Below are positions 1 through 48,545 of a stretch of 64,000 bases of DNA, one piece after another. Source of the stretch: an uncultured bacterium (lineage in GTDB: Bacteria; Patescibacteriota; Minisyncoccia; UBA6257; 2-01-FULL-56-20); NCBI GenBank assembly GCA_963719425.1, contig OY970382.1, positions 650,880 to 714,879 on the forward strand. The letters are read 5' to 3'. The notes under the pieces are model-generated. The model was not told the DNA's origin. It searched no databases and was given only the letters and a program-made list of their open reading frames with translations. Within the stretch, counting starts at the first letter, position 1, and each line of letters starts with the position of its first letter. A program made the position numbers and the translations under genes.

Positions 1-441
1 TGGCGTATGCCGCGTTGGATGTTCTCGGCGAGATTGTCGGAATAATACTTGGACTGACCGAACGCCACTTGGAGCATGAATAACCCCTGCGGGGTAGGTT
101 CAAACCAAAAAGTCGGAAAGCGCAGGGAGACGACCTGCTTCTGATCCACGGCGTAGATGATGCGGCCGCCGTCTATGCTGTTTCTGGCCAGCCTGTCGGG
201 ATGCCACGCAAGGATGCCCACGCCGTCGCTCTTCTCAATGCGAGCCATCATCTCGCCAAACACTTCGCGGCCTGGCGTCTTCGCGCTTTTCGACTCTTGA
301 AATTCGGTGACGATTTCAAGCTTTTCTCTACGGGCATACTCGCGCAACTCGAACAACTGCGCCTCGATGCTCATCACTTGACGGTCGTCGTCCTCGCTGG
401 ACTTCCTAGCGTAGAGAAAATATTTTGGCTTGCCGTTCATC
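1..441 (-). CDS. Large serine recombinase, N-terminal catalytic (resolvase) domain; partial, continues past window start
   Basis: Minus-strand translation from ATG at 439-441 reads MNGKPKYFLYARKSSEDDDRQ…SIEAQ…GILAWHPDRLARN…, a resolvase-type catalytic Ser motif. Paralogous to the N-terminus of ORF 7541..8896. Not in ORF track because it is truncated at the window edge. Confidence 0.8.
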
Positions 442-577
442 GTTTTTATTTATATGATCGCCCTGTTTGAATTTTCCGAACCCAGCCAGTTTGCCGCGAA
501 GCGGCGCGAGATTTTGGCAGTTGCGTCCGCCGCGCGGACGCAGGGTAAATTTCTTTCTGATCGCGAAGTCTCTATTT

Positions 578-843
578 GCGGTGAAATTCTGGCCTTTGCT
601 CGAACCTATTTTGAGAGAATAGCATAGCAATCCACCCCTTCAAATACCCCTTCAATTGCCCCGCGCCAATTTGAAGGGGTAGCGGATCAAGATTGCCCCG
701 AAAAATCTGGGCTTTCCGACCATCGCCCGACAAAATCCAAAGTCCTACTTCACTCCGCTAGACCCCCTCCGAAATGGTGTGCTCAGCCCCTCGGCCTGCT
801 GGCCTCGGGGCTTCGCGTATGGCGCGCCCAAATTCCTCCCCCA
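578..843. repeat. Left copy of a perfect 266-bp inverted repeat (IR-L)
   Basis: Reverse complement of 2416..2683 matches 578..843 base-for-base (checked in blocks 601-637, 680-739, 740-800, 799-843). Contains an internal 11-bp hairpin CCCCTTCAAAT…ATTTGAAGGGG. Confidence 0.9.
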
Positions 844-909
844 CAAAAAACGCTCGAGGCCGCGTGGCCGAGGTCGATATTTTTTTATAAAGAGTTATAC
901 TGACAGTAA

Positions 910-1980
910 ATGCCTTTTATCAAATCATTGGGTGCGTTTGTTATCGGGCTATTTATCACCTTGAGCGGCGTTTTTGGTTTGCATAAAAATCTCCCGAGTA
1001 GTCCAATTGCGCCCCCTCCCGAACAAAATCAGATAAGTATCACAACCGCAAGCAATACGCCAACTCTGAAAAAGAATGTTAGTTCTAGTGATGATATAAA
1101 AGTAAAACCCCCCAGCATTATTTTAAGCCAACCTAAAATCGAACAGAACACAACGCCAGAAGCATCAGTTACAACCGACTCAGAATCTCAGAAAATATTA
1201 ATATCTGAAGTAGATACATTGCAGAGTTTCCTTAATTTCTATCAAACGTTTTTATTGGAAACACAGAAAGGGATACCACAAGCGTTAAGTTCGATTACCA
1301 CGGACTACAACTCAGCTACGGGCGCAATAACTGCTGAGTATAATATGAATAAAGATTCTTTGACCTCGCAATACAATATGGGTGAATCATATTTAGCAAG
1401 AGCTAAAGATAAAATTAGTCTGAGCCCCGGGATAATAAAAAGCGTCGAGGATAATTATGTGCTTGCTAAAAGCTCGTTTGAATCTTTATATCAAGACGAG
1501 TCGCAACAGCTCCAATCCTCTTATAGCCAATGCACAAATCAAGCGAGCAGTGTAGAAAAATCCAATACCGATAATTACCAATCCATGTCGAGTTACATAT
1601 CTTTAGAACTACCAATCATCAGTTCTCAGCTAAATTTATTGAATCAGTTTAGCAATAAACTTTCGTCGCCACTTTCCGTGTCGGATTTAGCAGAAATAAA
1701 TGCCTCTCTGAGTCAAAACTTTCCTGAATTACAAAATTCAAACTACTATGATTCTTCCGAGGGCGCAATCGTAGAAAGGCCGGAATATGCAAATGGATTT
1801 CCTGCAAACGCCATAGCACAATGCAATGACGGAACATATAGTTTCAGCGAAAATAGCAGCGGGACTTGCTCCTCGCATGGGGGCGTGAATAGTCTGCTAT
1901 ATACGCCACAAGTGAGCGATTGCGTTTCGGCTGCTGCCGATCTGCCATTGGATGATTTACAAAGCCAACTCGGTCTTTAG
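910..1980 (+). CDS. Hypothetical membrane-anchored Ser/Thr/Gln/Asn-rich protein (N-terminal TM helix)
   Basis: 356-aa ORF with N-terminal hydrophobic helix (GAFVIGLFITLSGVFGL). About 37% GC against ~55% background. A TATACT box lies 8 nt upstream of the ATG. Sits inside the IR-bounded cassette. Confidence 0.55.
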   Translation: MPFIKSLGAFVIGLFITLSGVFGLHKNLPSSPIAPPPEQNQISITTASNTPTLKKNVSSSDDIKVKPPSIILSQPKIEQNTTPEASVTTDSESQKILISEVDTLQSFLNFYQTFLLETQKGIPQALSSITTDYNSATGAITAEYNMNKDSLTSQYNMGESYLARAKDKISLSPGIIKSVEDNYVLAKSSFESLYQDESQQLQSSYSQCTNQASSVEKSNTDNYQSMSSYISLELPIISSQLNLLNQFSNKLSSPLSVSDLAEINASLSQNFPELQNSNYYDSSEGAIVERPEYANGFPANAIAQCNDGTYSFSENSSGTCSSHGGVNSLLYTPQVSDCVSAAADLPLDDLQSQLGL

Positions 1981-2016
1981 TTTAGCCACGAGAGAGGTTA
2001 TTTAAAAAAACAAATT

Positions 2017-2223
2017 ATGAAAAAATATATCCCAGCACCAATTGTAATTGTGTCGTTTGTCGGATTGCTTTTGGCATATCACTTTGCGCCTTGGTGGCTT
2101 TTTGAACTCATTATCGTTGCTTTCATAGGAATAATTTGGGGAGGGCTTTGGTTGCTTGGAGGATATGCCGAAAGAAAGAAAAAAGTAAATCCTAATCAAG
2201 AACAGGAGAAAACAGAAAAATAA
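2017..2223 (+). CDS. Small hypothetical membrane protein (2 TM)
   Basis: 68-aa ORF with two hydrophobic helices and a Lys/Glu-rich tail. AT-rich like the upstream gene. Inside the IR-bounded cassette. Confidence 0.4.
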   Translation: MKKYIPAPIVIVSFVGLLLAYHFAPWWLFELIIVAFIGIIWGGLWLLGGYAERKKKVNPNQEQEKTEK

Positions 2224-2415
2224 GATTAATTTATTAAATCAGATATTTCCAAGGGAGCTAGATCGCCTCTTGCCCGCGCAATGGGAGGGCTGGGGCAAGG
2301 GCAAGAACCGCTTTCTGAAGGGTCAGACACACAAAGACGTAGGATTTTCTCACTAGACAGGAATAGGGTCGCAAGACGCGGGACTACCACCTCTGAGCGC
2401 GCCTCAAAGGAGGGG

Positions 2416-2683
2416 TTGGGGGAGGAATTTGGGCGCGCCATACGCGAAGCCCCGAGGCCAGCAGGCCGAGGGGCTGAGCACACCATTTCGGAGGGGGTCT
2501 AGCGGAGTGAAGTAGGACTTTGGATTTTGTCGGGCGATGGTCGGAAAGCCCAGATTTTTCGGGGCAATCTTGATCCGCTACCCCTTCAAATTGGCGCGGG
2601 GCAATTGAAGGGGTATTTGAAGGGGTGGATTGCTATGCTATTCTCTCAAAATAGGTTCGAGCAAAGGCCAGAATTTCACCGCC
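2416..2683. repeat. Right copy of the perfect 266-bp inverted repeat (IR-R)
   Basis: Reverse complement identical to 578..843. Outer tip ends …GAATTTCACCGC|C. The 16-mer CACCGCCCGTTAGTGC (2677-2692) recurs at 11016-11031. Confidence 0.9.
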
Positions 2684-2843
2684 CGTTAGTGCAGCGGTTC
2701 GAGAGACCTCCCGGCCTCGGATTTTGCCATCTTTTTGAAACGCAGTTTAGGCGATGAAAGTCGGCGAGTGTCTAGGATTCGAACTTTGCATTTTGCGGAT
2801 CAACAAGTAGCCCCCCTGATTATAAAAAGCGGAATGGGTTGGG

Positions 2844-3506
2844 TTACAACTTAAAGAAGCTGAAAAGATTTGCGAAAAAGCTCATAACGGATCCAAAGAA
2901 CCCCTGGCTGACTGTCGCTGTTGAGGTTGAGACAGGCGTCGAACTTGGAGAATCATTGCGATAGCCCGGAAACGTGCCGCTTGCGAATGGCGGCGTACCG
3001 GAAGGTGTCCCTGTCGGGCGATTGTCGATGCGAAGCGTGCTCGAAGGTGTTCCCGTTGGGCGAGTGCCAATGCGAGGAGGCGTACCGCTTGTGTTGATTG
3101 GGCGGGTACTGGAACCCATTCCGCCTGGTCGTCCCGGATAATTACCACTACCGCCGAGACCATCCAGAATACTCGTTGCAATCACTGAATTACCGTTGAC
3201 CGTTCCTTGTACCATAACGGTGTCGCTGACAGCGATATTAGAGAGCGAAGATGCCGACCCATTTTTCGTCACGCTGGCATTTGAGGCATCAACCGTGTAG
3301 GTCGTACTGTTGCGACTATCTGTATCTGTAATGGTAATAGTTGTACCGTTAATTGCGGTTACCTGCCCGAAAACACCAGGGGGCTGACCCATTCCTCCGC
3401 CTCCGGGACCGCCAGCGGGCGGATACGACTCTGCAAGAACGGGTCCTGCGACAAGAACAAACGATGAAATTACGACTGCTGAAATTCCCCATAATCTCTT
3501 TTTCAT
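2844..3506 (-). CDS. Hypothetical secreted Gly/Pro/Thr/Ser-rich protein (signal peptide)
   Basis: 220-aa ORF with N-terminal signal-like sequence MKKRLWGISAVVISSFVLVAGPVLA and low-complexity G/P/T/S-rich regions. Confidence 0.55.
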   Translation of the reverse strand: MKKRLWGISAVVISSFVLVAGPVLAESYPPAGGPGGGGMGQPPGVFGQVTAINGTTITITDTDSRNSTTYTVDASNASVTKNGSASSLSNIAVSDTVMVQGTVNGNSVIATSILDGLGGSGNYPGRPGGMGSSTRPINTSGTPPRIGTRPTGTPSSTLRIDNRPTGTPSGTPPFASGTFPGYRNDSPSSTPVSTSTATVSQGFFGSVMSFFANLFSFFKL

Positions 3507-3592
3507 GACAGTGTTTTAATGTTTATACTCTATATACTGGCCGCTCGCAGAAAAAGTTTCATAATTCAATAAAGTTGCGAGAAGATCCACGC

Positions 3593-4816
3593 CTATTCGT
3601 ACCGTAAGGCCTCGATGGGATTCAAGCCAGCCGCCCGGCGTGCAGGGAAATAGCCGAAAACGATGCCGATCAGCATGGAAACTCCTACCGCAAGAAGCAC
3701 GGAATACATGGAGACGGTGGCGGTAAGAAGCCCGGTCAACGTGATAATATATGAAGCGCCGTATCCTATGACAACGCCGATGATGCCCCCGGTCATGGTG
3801 AGCGCAACTGCTTCAGTAAGAAACTGAATGCTGATGTCTCTTTTCTTCGCGCCGATTGCCTTGCGCAGACCGATCTCTTTCGTTCTCTCGGTAACGGTCG
3901 TAAGCATCATATTCATAATACCGATCCCTCCTACGATAAGGGATATCGATGCGATTGCCGCGAGGAGATAGGTAAGCGTGGTGGTGATGCTTGAAAGCGT
4001 CGAAGAAAGACTTGCCTGACTCTCAATGTTGAAATCTGCATTCGCCGAATCAGAAATACGGTGCCGCTTTAAAAGTAGCGCAGTGATACCATCTTGTACG
4101 GACTGTGAATCGCTGGAGGTGTCGGCCTCGACAGATATATCGCTCAGATATTGATTGCCCGTGATCATCTGTTGGGCGGTGGTGAGGGGAATATATGCGG
4201 CGTTATCCGGATTGTTAAATCCCGACCCCCCCTTCGCTTTAGTAATGCCAATGACAGTGAATTCAAGATTATCGATGCGAACAGTCTGGCCGATCGCTTC
4301 CGCGCCCGCGCCGAAGAGATCATCACGCGCCGTGGGGCCGAGAACCACAACCCGCGCATACCCTTGCAAGTTCTTATCTGAGATGAACGATCCCTCCTGC
4401 ATATCCACATTGTGCACGGTCGCGTATACCGTTTCGACGCCGTAGATCGAGGTATTGGTGTTTTTACTCGCCGCGACGATCTGCTGATTCGTGCTTACCT
4501 CGGGCGAAACATTCGCCACTCCGGAGACATGGTCTTGAATTGCGGTAGCATCGTCCCGGGTGAGGCTTTGCGCTGATCCACCGCTTCCCCGAACTTGGCT
4601 GCCGGGAGTCCTTGCCGCCCCCGCCGAAACGGTCAAGAGGTTCGAGCCCAGCCCTTGGATGTTCGACTGGATCGAACTGCTCGTGCCGTTGCCGACCGCA
4701 AGCATGATGATGACCGAAGCGATGCCGATCACAATGCCAAGCACGGTAAGTCCGGATCGTGACTTATTGCTGAGGAGCGCCGACGCGGTTTCCCGATATA
4801 GGTTGCGAATGGTCAT
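3593..4816 (-). CDS. ABC transporter permease (MacB/FtsX-like)
   Basis: 407 aa with N-terminal TM, large periplasmic domain and C-terminal FtsX-like 3-TM region. 4-bp overlap with upstream ATPase gene; operon with 4813..5529 and 5541..7220. Confidence 0.85.
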
Positions 4817-5529
4817 GCGGGAAGGTTTTTATCGAGATTTTTTTGATTTGGATTCTTCTTGTCTTCAAGAATGAGGCCATCCTTGATAAAAATGATCCGC
4901 TCCGCACAATTCGCCGTATCAGGATCATGGGTGATCAGAATCATCGTGACCTTGTGTTCCTTATTGAGGCGCTGAAAGGTGCCAAGAACGATCTCTCCCG
5001 TTTTTGAGTCAAGATTGCCCGTCGGCTCATCCGCCATAATGACCGAAGGATTATTAACAAGCGATCGAGCGATGGCCACGCGCTGGATCTGCCCTCCTGA
5101 AAGTTGGTTCGATTTATGTGTCCACCGATTTTCGGGAAGTCCTGCCGACTGAAGAGCGGCGGCGGCACGCGGTTCAAGTTCGGCCTCGGGCGCACCGGAA
5201 TATACCAGCGGCAAGGTTACATTGCGCATTACCGTAGTGCGCGGCAGCAAATTGAACGCCTGAAATACGAATCCGATCTTACTCGAACGTATGTCCGCAA
5301 GTTCATCATCGGAAAGCTTTGAAACGTCCTTGCCGTCAAGAAAATATTGTCCCGACGTTGGAGTATCGAGGCATCCCAAGATGTGCATAAGCGTGGACTT
5401 CCCCGATCCGGAGGGGCCGATAATGGCAACGAACTCCCCGTCTTTAATGGAAAACGAGACCCCTTTCAATGCTTGGGTTTCTTCTTCGCCGCTTCCATAG
5501 ACTTTTGTGAGATTTTTGCATTCAATCAT
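4813..5529 (-). CDS. ABC transporter ATP-binding protein (MacB/LolD-like)
   Basis: Walker [10 protein letters not shown], signature [15 protein letters not shown], Walker [12 protein letters not shown]. Confidence 0.9.
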
Positions 5530-5540
5530 GGGATATATAT

Positions 5541-7220
5541 TTAGGCACCGGGGCCGCCCAATAGCCCTCCCGATGATGTCTTGGTAGCGCCCGTAACGGT
5601 ATGCGTTACGATGAGTTCGCCCTCGGTGAGGCCGGAAGTGATAACGGTATTTAAGTTGTCGGAATCTCCCGTTTGCACCGTAACGGAATGCGGGGCGGTA
5701 GTTAATGAAATCGTCGCGCCGTCCTTCGCTCCGGCCACCCCGTCAAGCACCTGCACCGTTGAATTTGACCCCACGCTTAACACTGCTGAGTTAGGGACAA
5801 GGAGCACTCCAGTATCCTGTCCGATAGTTATTGTCGCCGAAACACTCATCCCCGGCTTCACTCCTTGGCCTGAGGCATCGAAAACAATTTTTGCATTATA
5901 ACTCACCACCCCTTGGGTAACCGTACCGATGGTATCGATCTGAGAGACTGTGCCCGTTGCCGTAACGCCGGGCAACGCATTGAAGGTAATGGTTGCTGTA
6001 TCGCCGAGCTTCACCTGCGCCGCATCGACTTCGTTCAACGAGATTTTTGCAATCTGCTCTTTGGTTATGACGGTGGCAATAACCGTATTGGTATTCACGA
6101 CATCGCCGACCGAAACGTTCACGGCGGCAACAACACCGCCAAACGGAGCTTTGATAAAGCTTTGATCGTAGGTGTTCTGAGCGGCTTGCAGTGCCGCCGT
6201 ATCGTTATCGAGCTGCGCCTTCGCCGTTGCGATGTCTTCGGGAAGAACCGGGGCAGTCGTTTGGTTATATGATGCCTGATTTTGTGCAAGCGACGAGGAG
6301 GCAGTTTGAACACTTTGCCCCGCCGCAAGCACGCTTGAAATGTCAGATGAAATGGTCGCCCGCGCCGAATCGACGGTGGTTATATAACTCGTCCCCGCAG
6401 AGGCGGGCACGATATAATTGGTGAGAACGCTCAGCATATCGTTAAGAAACTGGCTGGTCGAAGCGAGGTTGGTGTTGGTTGTCGCGAGCGCCGCAGCAAG
6501 ATCATTGACGTTGATATTCCCCGTGGAGGAGGCGGCCTTTGCAATTTGATCTTGCCATGTCGAAAACATATATTGAGCGCTCAGCCTCTCGTCGTTTATG
6601 TTGTTTTGAAGCTGGGTATTGGTCACGGTACCGCCCGGAACGGAAAATTGCGGATTAGCCGTCGTATTATTTGCATTGCCAAAAAATCCGTTCGTGTTGG
6701 TGAATACCACGGAAAATGTGTCGTTATAGGCACTCTGCAAACGGTTTATGAGTGTTTGTTCGGCATTTTGTAACGAGAGTTGAGCAGAGGCCACCTGCGC
6801 CTGACTCACTGCCACGCTTTGGCTGGTCGCCCCCGCCACCACTTTGTCATAATTTGCCTGTGCGCTTTCAACATTCGCTTTTGCCTGTGTGAGCTGTGTA
6901 AGAGCACTCGCATTACCAATGACCGCAATTTGTTCACCCGCAGTTACGGTGTTGCCTTGTTTTACATCCACCTCAGTAATCGTTGACGCGGACTGAGTCG
7001 TACCCTGCGGTTGGAGATCGACTTGGCTTTCGGCCTCCACTTGGCCAGTGCCATTCACGGTAATTGCAAGATTCCCCTTGGTCACTGTCCCGACCACATA
7101 TTGGGTCGGAGACCCCTTTCCTGCACTCACAATAAAGAATCCGCCAATTACAAGAACGACTACCACAGCAACAGATAGTATCTTGTGCGCTCCCACCCAC
7201 GCAAGAATCTTTTGTTTCAT
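5541..7220 (-). CDS. Efflux periplasmic adaptor subunit (HlyD/MacA family) with long coiled coil
   Basis: 559 aa with N-terminal TM anchor, long Ala/Gln-rich coiled-coil segments and a β-barrel-like C-terminal region. First gene of the three-gene export operon. Confidence 0.8.
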
Positions 7221-7233
7221 ATTGTTAGTTCTA

Positions 7234-7476
7234 TTACGGTCGCTCTTTTAAAATTCTGGCGATTTTCCCCAAATGTTCCGTGAAGGCTTTTGCTTTTACG
7301 ATGACAATGCCGTCATCAAAAGGAGTGCCTATGATAAGGAATCGTTCGCCCGATTTTATATGGAGTTTTTTCCGCGCTTCCGCCGGGATGACAACTTGCC
7401 CCTTCTCGTTGATCGTCGATGTCCCATAGATTTCCGACATGGGAGGTATAAAATTACCCTTTTTATTACTTTTCAT
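7234..7476 (-). CDS. AbrB/MazE/SpoVT-family DNA-binding protein (possible antitoxin/regulator)
   Basis: 80 aa. GQVVIPAEARKKLHIKSGERFLI matches the swapped-hairpin AbrB/MazE motif. Immediately downstream of the serine recombinase on the same strand. Confidence 0.6.
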   Translation of the reverse strand: MKSNKKGNFIPPMSEIYGTSTINEKGQVVIPAEARKKLHIKSGERFLIIGTPFDDGIVIVKAKAFTEHLGKIARILKERP

Positions 7477-7540
7477 ATACTTATTATACTACCTCTGGCG
7501 CTATTTTGTTTCAATTTGCAAAATAAGCGCCCAAAAATCA

Positions 7541-8896
7541 TTATAAAATGTCGCTCTTCTTTTCAATCACAAGCTGCTTATTCTTCAGCACCAGCCAGCT
7601 CTTGAGGTTCGTTAGCAACTCCCTTTTCTCCGTAATGCTACCCTCTTTGAGGAGGTATTTAGCATAGGTCTTGAAATCGATGTCGTTGGTTTCTTTCCTG
7701 ATTTTCTCCTCGATTTTGTCGGTACCAAACATCGCCCGCTTAAAGTGTTTATAGCGTTCAATCTCTTCTTCAAATTTCTTTTTGACGCCGAGCTCGTTCA
7801 TGTCGATCCGGTCCATGAGTTTCACGAGCTGTGCAATCAAATCCTCCTCGCGGATCGCACCGCCCTTGCAGTGCAGATCCCTCGATCGTGTGCAGGCGTA
7901 ATAGACGTAGCGATGCACGTTCCCATTTTTCTGCTTCTTGAATTTCTCATCGGCCGTAATGCCCGATCCACACTCGGCGCATTTGATGAGCTTTGTAAAA
8001 GCGAACTCTTTTGATTCCCGTTGGATATGATCTCGCTTTAGTTGTTCCTGTACCTTGTCGAATAAATCTCGCGAGATGAGCGGCTCATGCTTCCCATTGT
8101 ACCAGTTGCCACTTTTCTGCGGATACTCGAAGACGCCGTAATAAAAGGTATTTTGGAGAAGAACATAAATATTTCCGAGCGATAAATGGTGGTTGCTCTT
8201 AGTCCGGAAATTCAGCTCAAATTTCAACCAGTGGAAAAGCTTCCTCCCCGACCAGCGGTCGAAGGCCACCTTTTCGAACATCTTCTTGATAACGGGCGCG
8301 CGCTCGGGATCAATAATAACTTGGCATTTCCGCTCGGCGAGCCGTTGCGTGAGATAGCCCGTGGGTGGGGTTGTCGGCCATAAACCCATCTCGCATCGCG
8401 CCCGCTGCCCTCTCTTTATATTCACGCCTCGGTTGTCGTTCTCAAGCTTCGCCTGCGAGCACAGGATCATGAGGAGGAACTTCTCGTTTGGCGAGTTACT
8501 GAATCGCTGACCGTAAGTGCGGATCTCCATAAGGAGCTTCTGGTCCATGAGGTCCACGAGCGATCCAAGGTCGCCCGCGTTCCTTGAGAGCCGATCAGGT
8601 GCCCACGTGAGGATGCCGTTGAACTTGCCCATGCGAAGATCGTTGATCATCTCGTTGAAGATGGGTCGTTGTCCGGTCGCTTTCGCCGAATGGCTCTCGC
8701 GCTTCATCTCCACGATTTCAAGATTCTCGCGCTCGGCAATCTGGAGCATCTCCTTTATCTGCGAATCAATGGAAAGGATCTGACGCTCCTCCGATTCCGT
8801 GCTTTTCCTCGCGTAAAGGCAGTATTTGACCTTTATGGGAGCCTCCACTGCCGTCTGGGTCCCGACTCCCCGGGGATCCGTTGTTTTTGCTGTCAT
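7541..8896 (-). CDS. Large serine recombinase (resolvase domain + recombinase domain + zinc ribbon)
   Basis: 451 aa. N-terminal YARKSTESEERQ…SIDSQ catalytic Ser region, central recombinase domain, C-terminal CAECGSG…C zinc-ribbon and coiled coil. Confidence 0.9.
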   Translation of the reverse strand: MTAKTTDPRGVGTQTAVEAPIKVKYCLYARKSTESEERQILSIDSQIKEMLQIAERENLEIVEMKRESHSAKATGQRPIFNEMINDLRMGKFNGILTWAPDRLSRNAGDLGSLVDLMDQKLLMEIRTYGQRFSNSPNEKFLLMILCSQAKLENDNRGVNIKRGQRARCEMGLWPTTPPTGYLTQRLAERKCQVIIDPERAPVIKKMFEKVAFDRWSGRKLFHWLKFELNFRTKSNHHLSLGNIYVLLQNTFYYGVFEYPQKSGNWYNGKHEPLISRDLFDKVQEQLKRDHIQRESKEFAFTKLIKCAECGSGITADEKFKKQKNGNVHRYVYYACTRSRDLHCKGGAIREEDLIAQLVKLMDRIDMNELGVKKKFEEEIERYKHFKRAMFGTDKIEEKIRKETNDIDFKTYAKYLLKEGSITEKRELLTNLKSWLVLKNKQLVIEKKSDIL

Positions 8897-8948
8897 ACCA
8901 CAAGGGATGACGCAACGGTGGATGGAGTCCAGACCCCTCGGAAGGCCC

Positions 8949-8977
8949 TTGAAAAACCCCTAAAAATGTGGTATTCT
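8949..8977 (+). promoter_or_regulatory. Putative sigma70-like promoter for the 9047..10460 gene pair
   Basis: TTGAAA (8949-8954), 17-nt spacer, TATTCT (8972-8977), about 70 nt upstream of ATG 9047. Confidence 0.4.
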
Positions 8978-9046
8978 CATGGGAAATAAGCCCTCGAAAT
9001 TGAGAGAAAGGTCGATTGTGTAAAATCAGCTAACAACAATATTTTC

Positions 9047-9631
9047 ATGACCAAAGAAACATTCTCAAAAGAACTCAAAGAGATCCTCGAGCTTGTAAAA
9101 ATGTGCCCACAAAATCTCCAAGAAAAATGCTTCGAGATTCTTCTTAATGATGCGCTGACATCAATGAAGGGAGGGCGGCGCGCGGACACGGGAGCGAAGG
9201 GAGAAATACCTGACCGCGCCGACGTCGGGGCATCGGGCGTACCCCCCGAGATCAAAAAACGAATCAAGGTCTTCGCCGAACATCACCAGCTTTCCGATGT
9301 TGAGATTTATAAAGTGTTCGGCGTCGACGAAGCGGGAAATGTAAGCATCGAGGCTGCGGATTTGAAGTCTAAGAAAGTTGCGCAACAACAGCGGCGGCTA
9401 GCGTTGCTAATCGGTGTCAAGCATCAATTCGCAGAGAGCAGCTTTGATGTACCAAAGGATGAGTTGCGCGAAGCGTGCGTAACCTATGGAGCATACGACG
9501 CCGCAAACTTTGTGCAGAATCTCAAAAATATGAAAGAGATATTCGCCGGCTTCAAGCCAACCGCGACCAACAAATTATCTCCCTTGGGGAAGACACAAGC
9601 AGCGGCTCTCGTTAAGGAATTAGCTTTGTAA
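9047..9631 (+). CDS. Hypothetical protein (first gene of two-gene module)
   Basis: 194-aa ORF, no recognisable motifs. Stop lies 8 nt before the start of the next ORF, suggesting translational coupling. Confidence 0.55.
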   Translation: MTKETFSKELKEILELVKMCPQNLQEKCFEILLNDALTSMKGGRRADTGAKGEIPDRADVGASGVPPEIKKRIKVFAEHHQLSDVEIYKVFGVDEAGNVSIEAADLKSKKVAQQQRRLALLIGVKHQFAESSFDVPKDELREACVTYGAYDAANFVQNLKNMKEIFAGFKPTATNKLSPLGKTQAAALVKELAL

Positions 9632-9641
9632 ATTATGCCGC

Positions 9642-10460
9642 ATGGTAGAACAACTGGAACGCTTCCTGTCGTCCCTTGCGGAACTTCAAGAAGCCATCAA
9701 GAAAAATAAATCCGACTTTATTTCTCGCTCCGCTCTGCGAGGTAGCGTTGCAGATTGCGGGAAGTTTTGGCTTGGTAAGCTCTCGACCCAAATCCGTGGT
9801 GAGGGGTTGATTGACGATCAAATTCTTAACGCGATAGATGAAAAAATCGAAAAGTTGTTAGAGTTGACTTCGAATAACAACCGAAAAAACTCTTACCTCG
9901 GTTTGCTCAACGCGCTGCCGAAGGAAATCCAAAAGGGAGTCCTCGTCCCTATTATCAAGAAAACGAAAACGGCGCAAAATCCACTCGCCGCCTCGATCCT
10001 GTCGAAGATTTATTCCAGCCTCTCTTCTGACGAGGAGAGAAAATATTTTGAGGAGGCTGCTCGGGCGGCGGCCAGTGAGTGCTATAAGGCTGCAACAGTA
10101 ATGGTATGGTGCGCAGCAATTGATAGGCTTCGAAAGGTGGTTGAGAAGTTAGGTTTGAAAAATTTTAATAAAACCTCGAAACAGCTGAAGGCGCGGAAGA
10201 CCGGGTACTATAAACGTTTTTCTAAAGAATTTGATATATCACAGACCAACGAATTACCGGAGGTTTTTGATAAAGATTTGATCACGGTTCTTTCGGCAAT
10301 GGTAAATCTGGATTTGAACGAACTAGCAGCGATTATCCACCTCTTTGACGTACGCAACCACTGTGCCCATCCGTCTAGCTACGTCATGGACGAATTGGCC
10401 TATATCAACTACCTCAATGAGGTGTTGAAACTGGTGCTGTCCAATCCAAAATTTCTATAA
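9642..10460 (+). CDS. Hypothetical protein with C-terminal Rx4H HEPN-like motif (Abi/HEPN-like RNase candidate)
   Basis: 272 aa, mostly α-helical. The C-terminal …LFDVRNHCAHPSSY… fits the HEPN Rx4-6H motif, reminiscent of Abi2/AbiD-type HEPN domains (inference from the motif only). Confidence 0.55.
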   Translation: MVEQLERFLSSLAELQEAIKKNKSDFISRSALRGSVADCGKFWLGKLSTQIRGEGLIDDQILNAIDEKIEKLLELTSNNNRKNSYLGLLNALPKEIQKGVLVPIIKKTKTAQNPLAASILSKIYSSLSSDEERKYFEEAARAAASECYKAATVMVWCAAIDRLRKVVEKLGLKNFNKTSKQLKARKTGYYKRFSKEFDISQTNELPEVFDKDLITVLSAMVNLDLNELAAIIHLFDVRNHCAHPSSYVMDELAYINYLNEVLKLVLSNPKFL

Positions 10461-10479
10461 ATTTTCTGCTCTCGGGCAG

Positions 10480-10920
10480 GATCAAATGAGACATCGCCCC
10501 GAGACACGCAAAAAGTGTCTCATTTGTCTCATTTGATCAAAAAAAGTCTTATTTTACGGGCTTCGGTTTTTCGAAATGAGACACTGGTTTGTCCCACTGG
10601 AACACCCAGTTTTGTGTCTCATTTTGTCCCATTTCGGACACGTCCGGAATGCCGTTTTGGTGTCCGATTTGTCCGATTTGGCACACCGGGATGGCACACG
10701 AAAAAGTGCCTATGCTGTGTGCCATTTGTGCCATTTTCTCCCAAAATGTTACATGCCCCGGCAGTGTAACATTTGTAACATTTTGGGCGTTGCGCTTGGG
10801 ATGTTGCATTCCGGATCCCTTGAAAACACACATATTTTCGGTCTTGGCTGGCCACCCCACCGCAGAGGTGTCATTTCCCAAATGTTACACATCGTGTTGC
10901 ATTTGGTGCATGTTGCATTT
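10480..10920. repeat. Degenerate dyad/direct-repeat array of GT-NNN-CATTTG words with stepwise-varying cores
   Basis: Tandem pairs gtctcatttg×2, gtcccatttcg, gtccgatttg×2, gtgccatttg×2, gtaacatttg×2, gttgcatttg/gtgcatgttgcattt, each preceded by a matching inverted half-site (gagacac…gtgtctc, ggacacgtcc, ggcacac…gtgcc, tgttaca…tgtaaca). Region is open in 5 of 6 frames; the translated products look non-proteinaceous. Confidence 0.8.
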
Positions 10921-11100
10921 ACCCTAAATCCAAGAGCGACCTCCCGGCTTCAAAAACCGCTTTTCCAAGAAAGCCCTGAAAGGCTCATCAAAAAGAGGTT
11001 CCCGACCGAGGATCACCGCCCGTTAGTGCGTAAGTTTGAGGGGCCGCTTTGCCTAGTTTAACGCATTTCCACCCTGAGCTATAATTAGGGCATCAATAAT

Positions 11101-11274
11101 ATGAAGTTCAATATTTCTTCAAAATATTTTATCCCAATAGGAATCGCGCTCTATATTATTTTTCTTATCATAGGAGGCGTTATCGGCAGCGCAATTGGAA
11201 CAGTCGGATTTATCTTGTTTCTGTTGGGCCTCTTTGACATACTGCGTTCATGGTTTAAGAAGGGCAAGTCATAA
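11101..11274 (+). CDS. Small hypothetical 2-TM peptide (57 aa; below ORF-track cutoff)
   Basis: ATG at 11101 preceded by TATAAT (11079-11084). Product MKFNISSKYFIPIGIALYIIFLIIGGVIGSAIGTVGFILFLLGLFDILRSWFKKGKS has two hydrophobic helices. Confidence 0.35.
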   Translation: MKFNISSKYFIPIGIALYIIFLIIGGVIGSAIGTVGFILFLLGLFDILRSWFKKGKS

Positions 11275-11409
11275 TATGAATAAAGGAGGTGATTTGAATT
11301 GCGATAAATGCGGAAGAACAATAAAATCAAAACCGAACTAATCCTTTATTGGCTATTTCAGTATTTGAAGTTCGTGTAAATAATCGAAATCTTACTTATA
11401 TCGTAGACA

Positions 11410-11868
11410 ATGATAGATAAAAATCCAAAAGGACTTTTTAGGGAGGATTTGAAAAGCGCCAAAGTTATAAGCGTGGGGAATAAATTTGGTATTGAGGCGG
11501 AATACATTGGTGGCGAAAAAGAATTACTCCACGATTCGTTTAATTCTTCCGATGAAGCTCAAAAGGAGATTGACGAGACTCTAAAATGGGTCGGTAGAAT
11601 TTCCCTATCAGATTCAATTAAGGCGACGGACGAGGTATTTGTTAAGATTGTTGACAACATTAAATGGGAGGCGAATGACCTCGCGCTCATTGGTATCTTA
11701 TTCACATTGATGGTTGGGCTGATTCCCCTGGTCAACCTTCTAGTTAAAAATTTATTCGCAGCCTGTATAATTGCTGTTATTAGCACAACAATCCTAATGG
11801 TGATAATTGCGAAGATAAAGATTGTTAAACGCCCTATAATCATATTCTTTAGATGGCTTTTGAAATAG
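11410..11868 (+). CDS. Hypothetical protein with soluble N-domain and two C-terminal TM helices
   Basis: 152 aa. C-terminal LALIGILFTLMVGLIPLVNLLV and IIAVISTTILMVIIAKI hydrophobic segments. AT-rich. Confidence 0.5.
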   Translation: MIDKNPKGLFREDLKSAKVISVGNKFGIEAEYIGGEKELLHDSFNSSDEAQKEIDETLKWVGRISLSDSIKATDEVFVKIVDNIKWEANDLALIGILFTLMVGLIPLVNLLVKNLFAACIIAVISTTILMVIIAKIKIVKRPIIIFFRWLLK

Positions 11869-11920
11869 AATCATAAAGTCGAGTATGTTCTCGTTATTCT
11901 ACTGACGGATCCGGGTTTTG

Positions 11921-12010
11921 GGGAAATAGACCCCGACCGACCCGCCTCAAATGACCGATTTCCAAGAACGTTGCGATGGATTGCCAGGATTTGGTTCTAG
12001 ACCTCTTCAC
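11921..12010. repeat. Direct repeat A (~95 nt), upstream flank of the nucleotidyltransferase gene
   Basis: About 80% identical to 12881..12975. Conserved core …CCGAC(C/T)CGCCTCAAA(T/C)G(A/G)CCGATTT(C/T)CAAGAA(C/T)GTTG…GGATTTGGTTC…CACCGC. Confidence 0.7.
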
Positions 12011-12038
12011 ACCGCCAGTTGGGAAAAACACAAATATT

Positions 12039-12830
12039 ATGAGTGAAAATTTAGATCATATACTAGAACACAAAAGATTCGCTCCAACCCCGGAATCGCT
12101 TAGCGCCATGAAAAATATCCGAGACATGCTTGAGGGCATACAAAAAAATATTCCCGGAATCCGCGGGATAGGTTTTATGGGGTCGCGAACAAAAGGCCAG
12201 GAAAAAGCAGATTCAGATTTAGATATTGTTGTTTTTTACGACTGGAATATAGTATTTAACACCAAGAAATATATAAACAAAGAAGTTATTCGAGATTCAT
12301 TTCCAGTAGATATCCCCCTCGATGTGGAGCATTATGGTGCTTTACATTTGGTAGAGATAGGTAAAGGGTCATTAGATTCTGAAATTTCTGACCTTGTTGC
12401 CACAGCCAATGAGATTGCTGAAGGAGAAAATATTCCAGTGGAACAAATTCCCACATTACCTTTCCGGTCACCTTTGAGCAATTTATTTATGCTTGCGGTT
12501 GGTGACCAGGTTTATAAAGCGAGGAGATATGTGCTTGAACAATTACAGTCCAAACCTTACGGAGAAAAATACCTTCAACTTTTAATGAAGCAACTCTCTA
12601 AAGACGAACGCGAAGGAACCAGGAAACGAATAAGCCCGCAATATCCGAATTACCCTAAAACTTTTGAAGACGCAGAAAAGTTTTTTATTACCGAACCCTA
12701 CGATCTTGAAGAATTAAACGCGCCACTTATATCGCCGGCCAAAGAAGAGCCAAGGCGTTTAGGAGAAACTATTACAGCAGCGATTAACAAATTCTATTTG
12801 AACCTTAAATCGAAGAAGGGACGTGAGTAA
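12039..12830 (+). CDS. Nucleotidyltransferase-domain protein (pol-β/minimal-NTase fold with C-terminal helical domain)
   Basis: GIGFMGSRTKGQEKADSDLDIVVFYD (GS…DxD) plus a third acidic residue at DIPLDVEH about 30 aa later. Start placed at ATG 12039 because the upstream part of ORF 11976 overlaps repeat A. Gene is about 27-30% GC. Confidence 0.7.
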   Translation: MSENLDHILEHKRFAPTPESLSAMKNIRDMLEGIQKNIPGIRGIGFMGSRTKGQEKADSDLDIVVFYDWNIVFNTKKYINKEVIRDSFPVDIPLDVEHYGALHLVEIGKGSLDSEISDLVATANEIAEGENIPVEQIPTLPFRSPLSNLFMLAVGDQVYKARRYVLEQLQSKPYGEKYLQLLMKQLSKDEREGTRKRISPQYPNYPKTFEDAEKFFITEPYDLEELNAPLISPAKEEPRRLGETITAAINKFYLNLKSKKGRE

Positions 12831-12880
12831 TGATCTGAGTTTGTGTAAAAAATTGGGTGCCATCTATATCGTTATAACGG

Positions 12881-12975
12881 AAAATTGAACCCTACCGACT
12901 CGCCTCAAACGGCCGATTTTCAAGAATGTTGTAACGGCTTGCTGGGATTTGGTTCCCGACCGAGGAACACCGCAG
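12881..12975. repeat. Direct repeat B (~95 nt), downstream flank of the nucleotidyltransferase gene
   Basis: Aligns with 11921..12010. Ends GGTTCCCGACCGAGGAACACCGC, sharing GGTTCCCGACCGAGGA(T/A)CACCGC with 10999..11021. Confidence 0.7.
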
Positions 12976-13184
12976 ATTTGGTTGAAGATTATTTTCCACC
13001 GCGAGCGGCCACGCTTCGCGTGGCATGAAATCTAGCTTTCCCTCGCCGAGCCGGGAGTTCGGGGCTGCCTAGCATCCATAGGTTCTCGCCCTCAGGTTTT
13101 AGCATCGCAAAAAATTTAGGGATAAATCGGAGAGGATCGCCGATCCGGAAAAAATGACGAAAAAAAGGTTATAATCTGATATAT

Positions 13185-13973
13185 ATGATCGAAGTAAGTA
13201 ATTTGACCAAAAAATATGGTGATCTTACGGCAGTAAATAACGTGAGCTTCACCGTGAACGACGGAGAGGTGTTCGCGTTCCTCGGTCCCAACGGCGCGGG
13301 TAAAACTACGACCGTGAAGATGCTCACGACGCTGCTTCATCCCACTGCGGGGGTTATGAGGCTTAATAATATTGATCCCGTACGCGAACCGGAGCAGGCG
13401 CGCCGAACATTCGGGATTGTGTTTCAGGATCCAAGCTTGGATGACGACCTGACCGCCTGGGAAAATATGGATTTGCACGGGGTGCTCTATGACGTGCCGG
13501 ATGAGGCGCGACGGAAAGGGTGCGAGGAACTCCTGAAGTTCGTTGATCTCTGGGATCGCAAAGATAGCGTAGTCAAAGAATTTTCCGGAGGAATGAAGCG
13601 TCGGCTTGAAATCGCCCGGGGACTCTTGCACGAACCCAAGATCCTCTTCCTTGATGAGCCGACGACAGGCCTCGACCCTCAAACGCGGAACCTCATGTGG
13701 GACCGCCTGCAGGATCTCAATAAGACCAAGGGAATGACGATCTTTCTCACAACCCATTACATGGAGGAAGCCGACAGGATGGCGAATCGCATCGCCATAA
13801 TGGATGAAGGCAAGATCATCGCCACCGGGACTCCGGACGAACTGAAGAAGCAAACGAATACCGAGTTCCTTGAGGATGCGTTCCTCGCGCTCACGGGCAA
13901 GACCATTCGCGACGAAGGGGCCAGTTCCACCGACCACGCGAGAACCATAGGCCGCCGGATGGGAAGAAGATAA
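13185..13973 (+). CDS. ABC transporter ATP-binding protein (ABC-2/DrrA-like)
   Basis: Walker A GPNGAGKTT, signature FSGGMKRRLEIARGLL, Walker B ILFLDEPTTGLD. TATAAT at about 13171. Confidence 0.9.
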   Translation: MIEVSNLTKKYGDLTAVNNVSFTVNDGEVFAFLGPNGAGKTTTVKMLTTLLHPTAGVMRLNNIDPVREPEQARRTFGIVFQDPSLDDDLTAWENMDLHGVLYDVPDEARRKGCEELLKFVDLWDRKDSVVKEFSGGMKRRLEIARGLLHEPKILFLDEPTTGLDPQTRNLMWDRLQDLNKTKGMTIFLTTHYMEEADRMANRIAIMDEGKIIATGTPDELKKQTNTEFLEDAFLALTGKTIRDEGASSTDHARTIGRRMGRR

Positions 13974-41642: not shown

Positions 41643-41804
41643 GCCTTCTTCATCGCCCTTTTTCCACTCCGTCCTCGCAACTTTTGCGATAAGATCGGGA
41701 TCGTCAACTGGTACTTTTACTTCAAAGTATTTTCCTCCGCCGACGTCCTCTAGTTCACGAAGGGGGGTTTCGTCGGGAATGGAAGCTTGCGGAACTCGGA
41801 CTCG

Positions 41805-42035
41805 AAAAAGTTCGAATCCTTGCCCCCTGCGACTTTTCGTCGCCTAATCTGACCTTCTGCAAGTATTGGGAAGCCGAGGGGGGACTGTCCCTCGAACGGG
41901 CGCACAACCCTGCGGGAGCGAACCGACACCAACTAAACTCGAAATAAGTATTGAAAAATCTGCATTTTTATTTCCCGCTTTGCCCCGAATTGGTTCGAAT
42001 CTCATCCGGGTCGTTAAAATTATTCCGGTTTCTTT
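41805..42035. repeat. Intergenic repeat family, copy 1 (~230 nt)
   Basis: About 75% identical to 43880..44105. Starts AAAAGTTCGAATCC, ends GGTTCGAATCTCATCC. Internal GAGGGGGGACTGTCCCTCGAACGGGCGCACAACCCTGCGGGAGCGAACCGAC block. Confidence 0.75.
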
Positions 42036-43879: not shown

Positions 43880-44105
43880 GCATAATTAACGAAAAGTTCG
43901 AATCCTGGCGCCCTGCTCGGATTCGTGACATAAACTGAGCTCCCGGAAGCATTGAAAAACCGAGGGGGAGCCGTCCCTCGAACGAGCGCACAATCCTGCG
44001 GAGGCGAACCGACTATCACTAGTCTCAAAAAAGTATTGAAAAAACCTACATTTTATTTTTCTGCTCTGCACTAATTCGGTTCGAATCTCGTCCAGGTCGT
44101 TCAAC
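43880..44105. repeat. Intergenic repeat family, copy 2 (~225 nt)
   Basis: Aligns with copies at 41805 and 48345. Causes the shared KFESWRPARIRD(I/V)N peptide in spurious ORFs 43591..43938 and 48171..48398. Confidence 0.75.
43951..43980 (-). terminator. Rho-independent-terminator-like hairpin within repeat copy 2
   Basis: Minus strand forms CGAGGG-ACGGCTCC-CCCTCG then GTTTTTC. Lies 125 nt downstream of the 44105 stop. Equivalent hairpins occur in the other two copies. Confidence 0.45.
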
Positions 44106-48344: not shown

Positions 48345-48458
48345 TCCTATAAAAAGTTCGAATCATGGCGCCCTGCTCGGATCCGTGACGTAAACTGATT
48401 CTCCGCGAGCATTGGAAAATATAGGGGGAACTGTCCCGCGAGCGGGTGCACACTCCCG
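48345..48458. repeat. Intergenic repeat family, copy 3 (partial, ~115 nt) abutting the 3' end of tRNA-Ser
   Basis: AAAAGTTCGAATCATGGCGCCCTGCTCGGATCCGTGAC…GGGGGAACTGTCCCGCGAGCGGGTGCACACTCCCGCGG aligns with the first halves of copies 1 and 2. Confidence 0.7.
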
Positions 48459-48545
48459 CGGAAGGGGCGAGATTCGAACTCGCGGTACCATTTCTGGTAC
48501 ACGATCTTTCCAGGATCGCCAGTTAAACCACTCCTGCACCCTTCC
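48459..48545 (-). tRNA. tRNA-Ser (anticodon GGA), class II with long variable arm
   Basis: Minus strand folds as GGAAGGG-TG-CAG/D-loop/CTG-G-CGATC-CTGGAAA-GATCG-variable arm GTACCAGAAATGGTAC-GCGAG-TTCGAAT-CTCGC-CCCTTCC-G. Anticodon loop CTGGAAA gives GGA. No encoded CCA. Confidence 0.85.

Follow-up and report, generated by a model that had tools for sequence, protein, structure and literature searches.

A tRNA-3′-end look-alike as the putative end mark of large serine recombinase elements and recombinase-less cassettes in Patescibacteria

The motif GGTTC...CACCGC recurs in a 64,000-nucleotide (nt) stretch of DNA from an uncultured Patescibacteriota bacterium (contig OY970382.1, positions 650,880 to 714,879); this whole stretch is referred to here as the window. 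Judged by its sequence and surroundings, the motif appears to be a look-alike of the 3′ end of a transfer RNA (tRNA) that marks one end of mobile elements and of cassettes that lack a recombinase. The favored reading, with a probability of about 0.7, is that the 23-nt motif forms the terminal arm (the P-arm side) of the distal end of elements that insert at the 3′ tips of tRNA genes and are moved by large serine recombinases (LSRs) of a Patescibacteria-wide family. The distal end is a module of ~95 nt that finishes in CACCGC, termed the R-end, and the left-end module is termed U. An initial annotation had regarded the motif copies as termini of a family of small elements. It is corrected here: an 8.3-kb element with its own recombinase (element B, 2683-11019) forms the main unit, and two small recombinase-less cassettes, D and E, follow it (Table 1). 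New here are the connection to tRNAs, the large element, and the logic of tandem accretion.

The pattern GGTTC-N(10-25)-CACCGC has six matches in the window compared with 0.66 expected, a number reached by none of 100 shuffled sequences, so the motif is commoner than random frequency would allow. The annotation had held that five elements end in CACCGC preceded by a related stretch of ~25 nt. This is true of three: R_11000 (ending at 11019, and placed 2 nt too far to the right when reported at 10999-11021), repA (12015), and repB (12973) are homologous for ~95 nt leftward of CACCGC, and their 23-mers (10997-11019, 11993-12015, and 12951-12973) are the last 23 nt of that module. repA and repB are 77% identical across 95 nt. 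The other two proposed ends, the tips of an inverted repeat (IR) near the left edge of the window, are one and the same sequence, being the arms of a perfect 266-nt IR, and have only the terminal hexamer CACCGC in common with the R-ends. Their similarity to the three R-ends is at shuffle level (reached by 69-104 of 500 shuffles), and GGTTC lies 29 nt from the end in the tips vs. 23 nt in the R-ends. An alignment that treats the tips as R-ends with a 17-nt deletion was rejected as statistically unsupported by the same shuffles. At the 2682 junction, the right IR tip supplies the target-side sequence; it is not a member of the R-end family. The sixth match (63908-63938) is a chance occurrence, because it lies within an open reading frame (ORF) and fits neither the R nor the U profile.

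An alignment of all copies, as had been suggested for defining the core and crossover point, yields the ~95-nt R-end homology and a boundary at CACCGC; the IR tips fall outside it, and it does not fix the crossover dinucleotide. The flank that follows CACCGC differs in each copy, as had been noted, except that those at 2682 and 11019 are alike. This likeness involves the 16-mer CACCGCCCGTTAGTGC, which does occur exactly twice (2677-2692 and, with a correction of 2 nt, 11014-11029) and downstream of which similarity continues for 35-42 nt (reached by 3 of 500 shuffles). A block said to recur in inverted form at 2693-2740 shrinks to a single exact 9-mer, TCAAAAAGA (25 of 500 shuffles), and is weaker by eye in the homologous element of a related contig, L001.

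The likeness to a tRNA 3′ end extends to the spacing of its parts. CACCGC matches the final bases of the acceptor stem together with the discriminator G73 and C74, with GGTTC at T-loop distance; GGTTCnnnnCC is found 23-24 nt from the end, exactly the T-loop position, both in the line-up of junctions and on direct reading. A genuine tRNA-Ser(TGA) gene in metagenome contig L144, ending in ...GAGTTCGAATCTCACCCCCACCGC (its 3′ end is also given as ...CCCCCACCGC), carries the exact hexamer. In contig L077, the R tip reads TTCGTATCCCTCCGCCTCCGCC and the tRNA-Ser(GGA) of the same contig TTCGAATCTCACCGCCTCCGCC. The idea that R-ends are whole degenerate tRNAs was discarded: ARAGORN finds only a tRNA-Ser(GGA) in the window, the 5′ strand of the acceptor stem is absent, and only the 3′ 23-24 nt are tRNA-like.

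The position of the boundary can be read from both ends of the elements. On the distal side, a scan of metagenome contigs for the 23-mer pattern gave 61 matches, seven of them true R-ends by profile and the other 54 chance matches in high-GC DNA. Each of the seven has a different flank directly after CACCGC, and the 11-mer AGGATCACCGC before the boundary is identical in four contexts (the window, L087, L140, and L146). A constant 11-mer with changing flanks indicates that the tRNA-like arm is part of the element and that the break lies at CACCGC or just past it. On the proximal side, close relatives follow different acceptor strands, namely that of tRNA-Trp in contig L005, that of tRNA-Ser(GCT) in L001, and the IR tip in the window. 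The tRNA-Trp acceptor strand in L005 pairs with its own 5′ strand, and homology among the elements begins only at CCGC(C) followed by CG(T/A)TAG. With all junctions lined up, the common boundary is ...CC-G-C(C) followed by U, where the tRNA-Ser ends in CCTTCC-G-C and the R-ends in CACC-G-C(C). These positions suggest that strand exchange takes place at the tRNA 3′ tip, at or just after ...CCGC(C), and that the tRNA would be left intact. The crossover dinucleotide would lie within CCGC, and the candidates (CG or GC) are palindromic. A crossover in the T-loop, prompted by T-stem halves of R_11000 and repA that look chimeric, was ruled out by the constant 11-mer and the target-specific acceptor strands.

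The same junctions bear on a different explanation, in which the motif copies are native tRNA 3′ fragments displaced by islands of the tyrosine-integrase type: crossover would fall inside the tRNA, the element would restore the gene, and the serine recombinases would be bystanders. This would account for a tRNA-3′-like motif at island ends and for the direct repeats of tRNA 3′ ends that occur in L001, L027, L029, and L060, and islands of this kind typically form tandem arrays at tRNA genes (PMC4383910, PMC7192596). However, AGGATCACCGC stays constant across its four flanks and so travels with the element rather than the target, whereas the acceptor strands on the tRNA side vary between close relatives and, in L005, pair with their own 5′ strand. 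In addition, the orientation of the recombinase gene relative to the tRNA, described below, is 49 to 0, and no tyrosine integrase was seen among the ORFs covered by a non-exhaustive scan near the two arrays of the window. Tyrosine-integrase islands are thus a very improbable source of these repeats.

The recombinase of element B, designated recB, has the resolvase, recombinase, and zinc-ribbon domains that define LSR architecture and corresponds to the PHROG integrase family phrog_95 (E=5.8e-65). It has at least 8000 relatives, all at E<=1e-20, of which the 120 best are 66-93% identical; among the matches listed, the named ones are almost all from genomes of Patescibacteria, or Candidate Phyla Radiation (CPR) bacteria. 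The contigs with the two closest relatives are L001 and L005 (90% and 93% amino-acid identity, respectively), and both show a common layout of U, variable cargo, and a recombinase gene that points toward U. The U match (window 2679-2784, 106 nt) is 86% identical to L001 12812-12707 and L005 8809-8704, and a conserved stretch of 38-40 nt lies just upstream of the recombinase start at 90-92%. In the position equivalent to the window cargo, the two contigs hold unrelated genes: HIT and S66-peptidase genes in the 4.7-kb element of L001, and abhydrolase, Mur-ligase, Ddl, and VanY genes in that of L005. In L005, U comes directly after an intact tRNA-Trp (...CGCCCCCGCC followed by CGATAGTGCAGCGG). 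L001 is a tandem array in the order tRNA-Ser(GCT), element 2 with its own recombinase, and element 1, and the 23 nt preceding U of element 1 match the tRNA-Ser(GCT) 3′ end exactly. L001 additionally has unrelated ORFs, part of the repeat-rich "word" region of element B, and an R-end that finishes in the tRNA-like 23-mer. No R-end or word-region match was found in the L005 contig, so that between these two the distal end is documented in L001 only. The R-end of B is 86% identical to that of L001 (8224-8140) and 87-93% identical to the metagenome copies in L087, L109, and L140.

Both contigs have further features. The closest relative, L005 (1-2900, 4382-8660), has cargo of a peptidoglycan type, i.e., a Mur ligase, a D-Ala-D-Ala ligase, and a VanY carboxypeptidase, and upstream of its recombinase a bAvd gene (PF22296, a family tied to diversity-generating retroelements) stands beside an unannotated ORF of 357 amino acids (aa). 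Past the distal end of element 1 in L001 (8100-8140), the flank AGTAACAATTTTTTATCGGAGCAACCC equals the family consensus left-end motif; a third element, or a remnant of one, may follow in that array.

The link between this recombinase family and tRNA genes is not confined to the closest relatives. A scan of species-representative genomes gave 80 loci with recombinases 61-69% identical to recB. A tRNA gene is found downstream of the recombinase in 49 of the 72 loci with at least 1 kb of downstream sequence, and all 49 are convergent, with the tRNA 3′ end facing the recombinase, and none co-oriented; upstream, only 4 of 73 loci have any tRNA. Ser tRNAs account for 36 of the 49, the remainder being Gln, Trp, Asp, Arg, and Lys. 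Between the recombinase stop and the tRNA end lie 115 nt to 8.1 kb, a spread that fits variable cargo between an end module of ~110 nt and the recombinase. Just after the tRNA, TATCGG is present in 26 of 50 tails vs. 1 of 50 control heads, and GACCCGAG in 24 of 50 vs. 0 of 50. The same P′ sequence comes after tRNA-Asp in L047 and tRNA-Ser in L024, and since one sequence stands behind different tRNAs, the element-borne sequence begins at the tRNA 3′ tip. The suggestion of the annotation that LSRs are the candidate cognate enzymes gains from this tight and directional linkage to tRNA 3′ ends, although their catalytic part is inferred. Within 150 nt past the tRNA 3′ end in L006-L085, LSR loci have a conserved (A/G)GACAATTTnnTATCGGnnnGACCCGAG directly after the tRNA, which is probably an element-borne half-site; by eye, a hairpin and a T-run often come ~80-110 nt after it.

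Under the favored reading, the LSR, which would be recB or recA (a second LSR gene cut by the window start), recombines an element site consisting of R-end arm and U with a chromosomal site consisting of tRNA 3′ end and trailer, and would do so at the tRNA tip. The arm of the element would imitate the tRNA 3′ end, which is the left half of the chromosomal target, at equal spacing. Following insertion, an intact tRNA would be succeeded by the U module, and the far end would consist of the tRNA-like arm and the former tRNA trailer. Because the arm imitates the tRNA end, this distal product would again resemble the target, so that further elements or cassettes could insert there and produce tandem arrays that grow away from the tRNA. 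The window would then be read as the recA-element (up to 2682), B (2683-11019), D (11020-12015), E (12016-12973), and flank, with the recombinase-less D and E having been moved in trans.

A comparison of related genomes for presence or absence of the bounded segments, which the annotation had called for, shows such a difference for D and E. Metagenome contig L109 is 87.5% identical to window 10747-11019 and passes from there straight into a match to 12951-13061 at 85.6% (L109 251-361), with the overlap in the 23-mer. Relative to L109, the window has an extra 1954 bp (11020-12973) bounded exactly by the motif. Since an R_11000-type end in L109 runs directly into the flank found after repB in the window, this segment is an indel bounded by the 23-mer, and D and E form a presence/absence polymorphism that is cut exactly at the motif. 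An independent assembly, L148, shows the same arrangement as the window and reproduces junctions J2-J4. With end modules found around different cargo, the seven metagenome R-ends with their seven flanks, and the L109 indel, the annotation's view that conserved ends with variable flanks represent mobile-element termini or recombination sites has stood up well. The flank after repB matches L109 274-361 for only ~88 nt, ending in AGTTCG(G/A), after which divergence is complete, with an ABC-2 transporter operon in the window and small AbrB-like ORFs in L109. This flank may itself open a further modular unit.

The L109 difference would be a simple short-repeat deletion if the copies were non-mobile intergenic repeats, such as a terminator or promoter module, repeats like repetitive extragenic palindromes or miniature inverted-repeat transposable elements, or a small structured RNA. 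Every copy is indeed intergenic, a promoter-like site (11058-11085) follows J2, many U-equivalents in relatives show a hairpin and T-run by eye, and an identity of 23 nt could support an occasional deletion. Nevertheless, Rfam gives no matches at the gathering threshold, and at E<=5 a single chance match to a long non-coding RNA is all that appears in 400-13200; promoter-like sites are not enriched (7 found vs. 7.0 expected). No conserved or stable fold emerges either. R-end folds are unremarkable on the + strand (z -1.11 to +1.94; consensus fold -4 kcal/mol), only R_11000 reaches z = -2.66 on the minus strand, where repA and repB are positive, and reconstructed junctions of R and U are at shuffle level (z -1.2 to +1.1). 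The repeats also keep a fixed position and polarity with respect to the recombinase gene and tRNA across genomes, which speaks against their being non-mobile, and little credence is given to that possibility. A structured RNA or attC-like hairpin was specifically rejected based on Rfam, the single and consensus R-end folds, and the R/U junction folds.

Tandem arrays that include recombinase-less units between the same repeats are represented by D and E, the L144 cassette, the L077 array, and the L001 tandem. In L144, the tRNA-Ser(TGA) is followed by a short remnant and then by a methyltransferase cassette that has a U-like start and an R-end and lacks a recombinase. In L077, the tRNA-Ser(GGA) is followed by successive U-cargo-R units and then a recombinase, with four R/U repeats of ~160-210 nt splitting the cargo between tRNA and recombinase. 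The window itself has a second array, in which a U-type copy at 48.35 kb begins directly at the 3′ end of tRNA-Ser(GGA); U of element B is homologous, in reverse orientation, to this copy and to repeats at 41.8 and 43.9 kb. The R/U junctions in the window (41802-42018, 43888-44104) and in L077 resemble attP or tandem junctions, and no circle was seen.

The layout of the second array is tRNA, U-cargo-R, U-cargo-R, and U (41.8-48.5 kb), with no recombinase inside. Its cargo is low in GC and comprises a DUF3160 protein, a PGA_cap/Memo fusion, and a 657-aa zinc-finger protein. The tRNA-Ser(GGA) (48458-48545) is called by ARAGORN, yet a whole-window Rfam scan at the gathering threshold reports no family, tRNA included. 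A further repeat of both arrays is the 9-mer GATTCGAAC, which is inverted T-loop-like, has a palindromic TTCGAA core, and occurs in eight copies in the window vs. 1.3 expected. Its sites include 2776, 41810, 41993, 43896, 44079, and 48356, plus 48471 in the tRNA, and it sits at the inner borders of the U and R modules, at the points where variable cargo starts. The same edges in L077 have exact GATTCGAAC in two copies and the near-identical GATTCGAAT and GATACCGAA in others.

To the left of element B, the N-terminal 146 residues of recA match short resolvase-domain proteins (PF00239, some with PF07508) with identities of up to 88%, and recA and recB share 58-59% nt identity. The right arm of the perfect IR is possibly the distal end of the recA-element, whose tRNA and U side is predicted to lie outside the window. 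The IR encloses a low-GC segment of 1.6 kb (a DUF3761 protein and a 68-aa membrane ORF) that adjoins the truncated recombinase start. Logan contig L147 covers window 821-2289 only, starting 23 nt inside the left arm and stopping ~130 nt before the right arm. An invertible segment or a duplicated element end are both possible explanations of this structure.

This raises the question of whether the sites serve mainly local rearrangement, i.e., inversion, deletion, or cargo shuffling, as in shufflons or invertible segments. A perfect 266-nt IR ending in CACCGC flanks a 1.6-kb segment beside recA, the inverted T-loop-like GATTCGAAC bounds U and R modules in the stated excess, and the palindromic candidate dinucleotides in CCGC would permit either orientation. 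The annotation had likewise noted that the motif occurs in both orientations. This holds only for the arms of the IR, whose tips are not homologous to R-ends, and the three true R-ends and all R/U junctions are in direct orientation. Moreover, the same end modules are found in unrelated chromosomal contexts of other genomes, which implies movement between replicons or genomes that goes beyond local shuffling. A mainly local role therefore seems unlikely.

Several observations weigh against insertion of LSR-moved elements at tRNA 3′ tips as set out above. What the sequences show is the conserved architecture, the association with tRNA genes and its orientation, the positions of the junctions, and the polymorphism of D and E, whereas recombination is inferred and was not seen directly; for element B, no empty site or circular junction was found, and there is no tRNA on its left side within the window (it is predicted beyond the window start). 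At the junction between the IR tip and element B (J1), the tip lacks the 23-mer. By eye, no clear dyad symmetry of the kind typical of LSR attachment (att) sites surrounds CACCGC, and the sole inverted match between R-end and U is a 9-mer (25 of 500 shuffles). The L109 difference could be a short-homology deletion. In L077, the cassettes are on the tRNA-proximal side, so both junctions may be usable, which qualifies the idea of growth away from the tRNA. The scan near both arrays in which no Phage_integrase domain was found covered 27 ORFs and was not exhaustive. Finally, a tRNA-3′-like 22-mer sought at the far end of 46 related loci had a mean best match of 13.8 in sense and 13.8 in antisense, and family-wide mimicry of tRNA 3′ ends at the far end was rejected on this ground. 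Such mimicry is documented only in the subfamily of the window and in L027, L029, L060, L067, L057, L077, and element 2 of L001. A blastn-short comparison revealed direct repeats in only a few related loci; most are without long direct repeats, as expected for serine recombinases. Scans of viral contigs for the U and R-end patterns gave 0 matches.

Table 1. Features of the two arrays and of the motif in the window (64,000 nt).
Feature	Coordinates	Strand	Description
Motif matches	578-606 (-), 2654-2682 (+), 10997-11019, 11993-12015, 12951-12973, 63908-63938		Pattern search
recA, second large serine recombinase, 5′ part	1-440	-	146 codons; cut by window start; points left
IR left arm	578-843	-	266 nt, 100% complementary; outer tip ...CACCGC on minus strand
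IR right arm	2417-2682	+	Tip ...TTTCACCGC(C), joined to left end of element B (J1, 2682/2683)
Element B	2683-11019		~8.3 kb; U, cargo, LSR, two ORFs, repeat-rich region, R-end
U module	2683-2784	+	P′-side left end; starts right after ..CCGC(C), ends at GATTCGAAC
Cargo of element B	2844-7476	-	DUF5666 protein, MacB/FtsX permease, ABC ATPase, HlyD-type adaptor, MazE/AbrB-like protein (Pfam)
recB, large serine recombinase	7541-8896	-	451 aa; Resolvase PF00239, Recombinase PF07508, Zn_ribbon_recom PF13408
Two ORFs	9047-10460	+	194 and 272 aa, no assigned function; between recombinase and repeat region; variable in relatives
Non-coding "word" region	10461-10935	+	Five modules, each with its own 9-mer in one inverted and two direct copies
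R-end of B (R_11000)	10935-11019	+	tRNA-3′-like arm 10997-11019 = GGTTCCCGACCGAGGATCACCGC; junction J2 11019/11020
Cassette D	11020-12015	+	Recombinase-less; truncated U-like start 11020-11054 (shares 16-mer), 57-aa and 152-aa membrane ORFs, R-end repA
repA	11921-12015	+	23-mer 11993-12015
Cassette E	12016-12973	+	Recombinase-less; nucleotidyltransferase gene 12039-12830 (Pfam NTP_transf_2), R-end repB
repB	12879-12973	+	23-mer 12951-12973
Right flank of array	12974-13061	+	Common to L109, there directly after R_11000-type end
R/U junction repeat	41802-42018	-	attP-like or tandem junction; related recombinase-less array
Second R/U junction repeat	43888-44104	-	Same array; attP-like or tandem junction
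tRNA-Ser(GGA) and adjoining U-type module	48347-48545	-	tRNA 48458-48545; U-type module 48347-48462

As for the remaining contents of the first array, the cargo of element B, judging by its domains, is a MacB-type ABC exporter with an HlyD adaptor, plus DUF5666 and MazE/AbrB proteins. The accessory ORFs of the window, including the two ORFs between recB and the word region, had no tblastn matches in any of the related loci, and a homologue search with the nucleotidyltransferase of cassette E found only the window's own protein. The five 9-mers of the word region are TGTCTCATT, GTCCGATTT, GTGCCATTT, GTAACATTT, and GTTGCATTT, one per module. The region is 76.6% identical to L067 7399-7870 over 478 nt, with parts also in L057, L040, L001, L024, and L043, and it adjoins the distal end module in L067 and L001, as in the window. 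It could represent operators, iterons, or a single-strand origin.

Among known systems, the closest functional analogue is the staphylococcal cassette chromosome (SCC) and its recombinase-less form ψSCC, while the closest by genomic logic are tRNA-targeting islands together with the tycheposons of Prochlorococcus. In SCC, including SCCmec, the Ccr LSR inserts elements at the far 3′ end of a conserved housekeeping gene, leaves that gene functional, and recreates the target at the junctions (discussed in PMC10581047), and SCC and ψSCC also form composite tandem arrays with recombinase-less cassettes bounded by direct repeats. The elements described here differ in that the target is a tRNA 3′ terminus and not rlmH (orfX) or rimL, the hosts are Patescibacteria, and the tRNA-mimicking distal module of ~95 nt, the 106-nt U, and the word region are without an SCC counterpart. 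With Islander-type islands and tycheposons, the shared features are tRNA-adjacent integration, partial tRNA-like end repeats, tandem accretion, integrase-less units, and variable cargo (PMC4383910; 10.1101/2020.12.28.424599). Those elements, nearly all with tyrosine integrases, cross over inside the tRNA and restore the gene, whereas here an LSR would act, the 3′ tip forms the boundary so that the tRNA remains untouched, and the tRNA-like repeat is borne by the element. Of the classical features of tRNA islands, integration at a tRNA gene is seen in the related loci, and neither a tyrosine integrase (among the 27 ORFs scanned) nor an internal crossover with a restoring segment is seen. In tycheposon-type elements, 910 of 937 have a tyrosine integrase, and an LSR is found only in the remainder (10.1101/2020.12.28.424599).

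The phage integrases Bxb1, phiC31, and A118 have the same three-domain architecture as recB. Integration through short sites with minimal identity at the crossover is expected for such enzymes, in keeping with most related loci having no long direct repeats. The targets of known LSRs are mostly protein-coding genes, and the attP of these LSRs spans ~50 bp. In contrast, the end modules here measure 85-106 nt, and neither similarity between P-arm and B-arm nor tandem re-targeting is a feature of the model systems. The term "tRNA genes" has 0 occurrences in a large LSR survey (PMC10083194), where such genes go unmentioned among the targets. In a literature search, no account of LSR-tRNA elements in CPR bacteria was found.

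The filamentous phage phiRSM of Ralstonia reportedly (Askora et al. 2011, reference 22 in PMC7192596) has a small, resolvase-like serine recombinase with its attB at the 3′ end of tRNA-Ser. It resembles the present case in that a serine-family recombinase uses a tRNA-Ser 3′ end, and differs in that the enzyme is the small serine recombinase of an inovirus. The phage phiRSM is not known to have cassette arrays or a long tRNA-mimicking end module. Integron cassettes are also comparable, since they too are lined up beside a site-specific recombinase gene as recombinase-less units, mostly of one gene, each with a recombination element of ~60-140 nt at its end. However, IntI is a tyrosine recombinase, and attC is a folded single strand, whereas R-ends and R/U junctions fold at shuffle level; no attI or Pc organization was seen.

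For the annotation of this window, ~13 kb of unexplained repeats and low-GC genes becomes a defined tandem array. More generally, a very large and unusually conserved LSR family appears to use tRNA 3′ tips and to carry a mimic of the tRNA end on its own attachment site. Serine integrases are prized tools for genome engineering, and the finding, if confirmed, would supply a simple rule for locating attB and attP of hundreds of new LSRs. It would also provide a serine-recombinase counterpart to the accretion of tRNA islands and to SCC-type cassette arrays, and, for CPR bacteria, about whose mobile elements little is known, would explain the movement of accessory genes such as those for exporters, nucleotidyltransferases, methyltransferases, and cell-wall enzymes. 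A bolder and distinctly tentative proposal is that Patescibacteria possess an integron-like form of gene capture run by LSRs, in which cassettes are stacked at tRNA 3′ tips and each insertion recreates the target. Cassettes of such a system may often hold a single gene and end in a module of ~95 nt whose last 23 nt mimic a tRNA 3′ end. A palindromic crossover (CG or GC), along with the GATTCGAAC boundaries, might in addition permit inversion or swapping of cargo. Were this so, these tiny genomes would have a dedicated hotspot, anchored at tRNA genes, in which accessory genes are acquired and exchanged.

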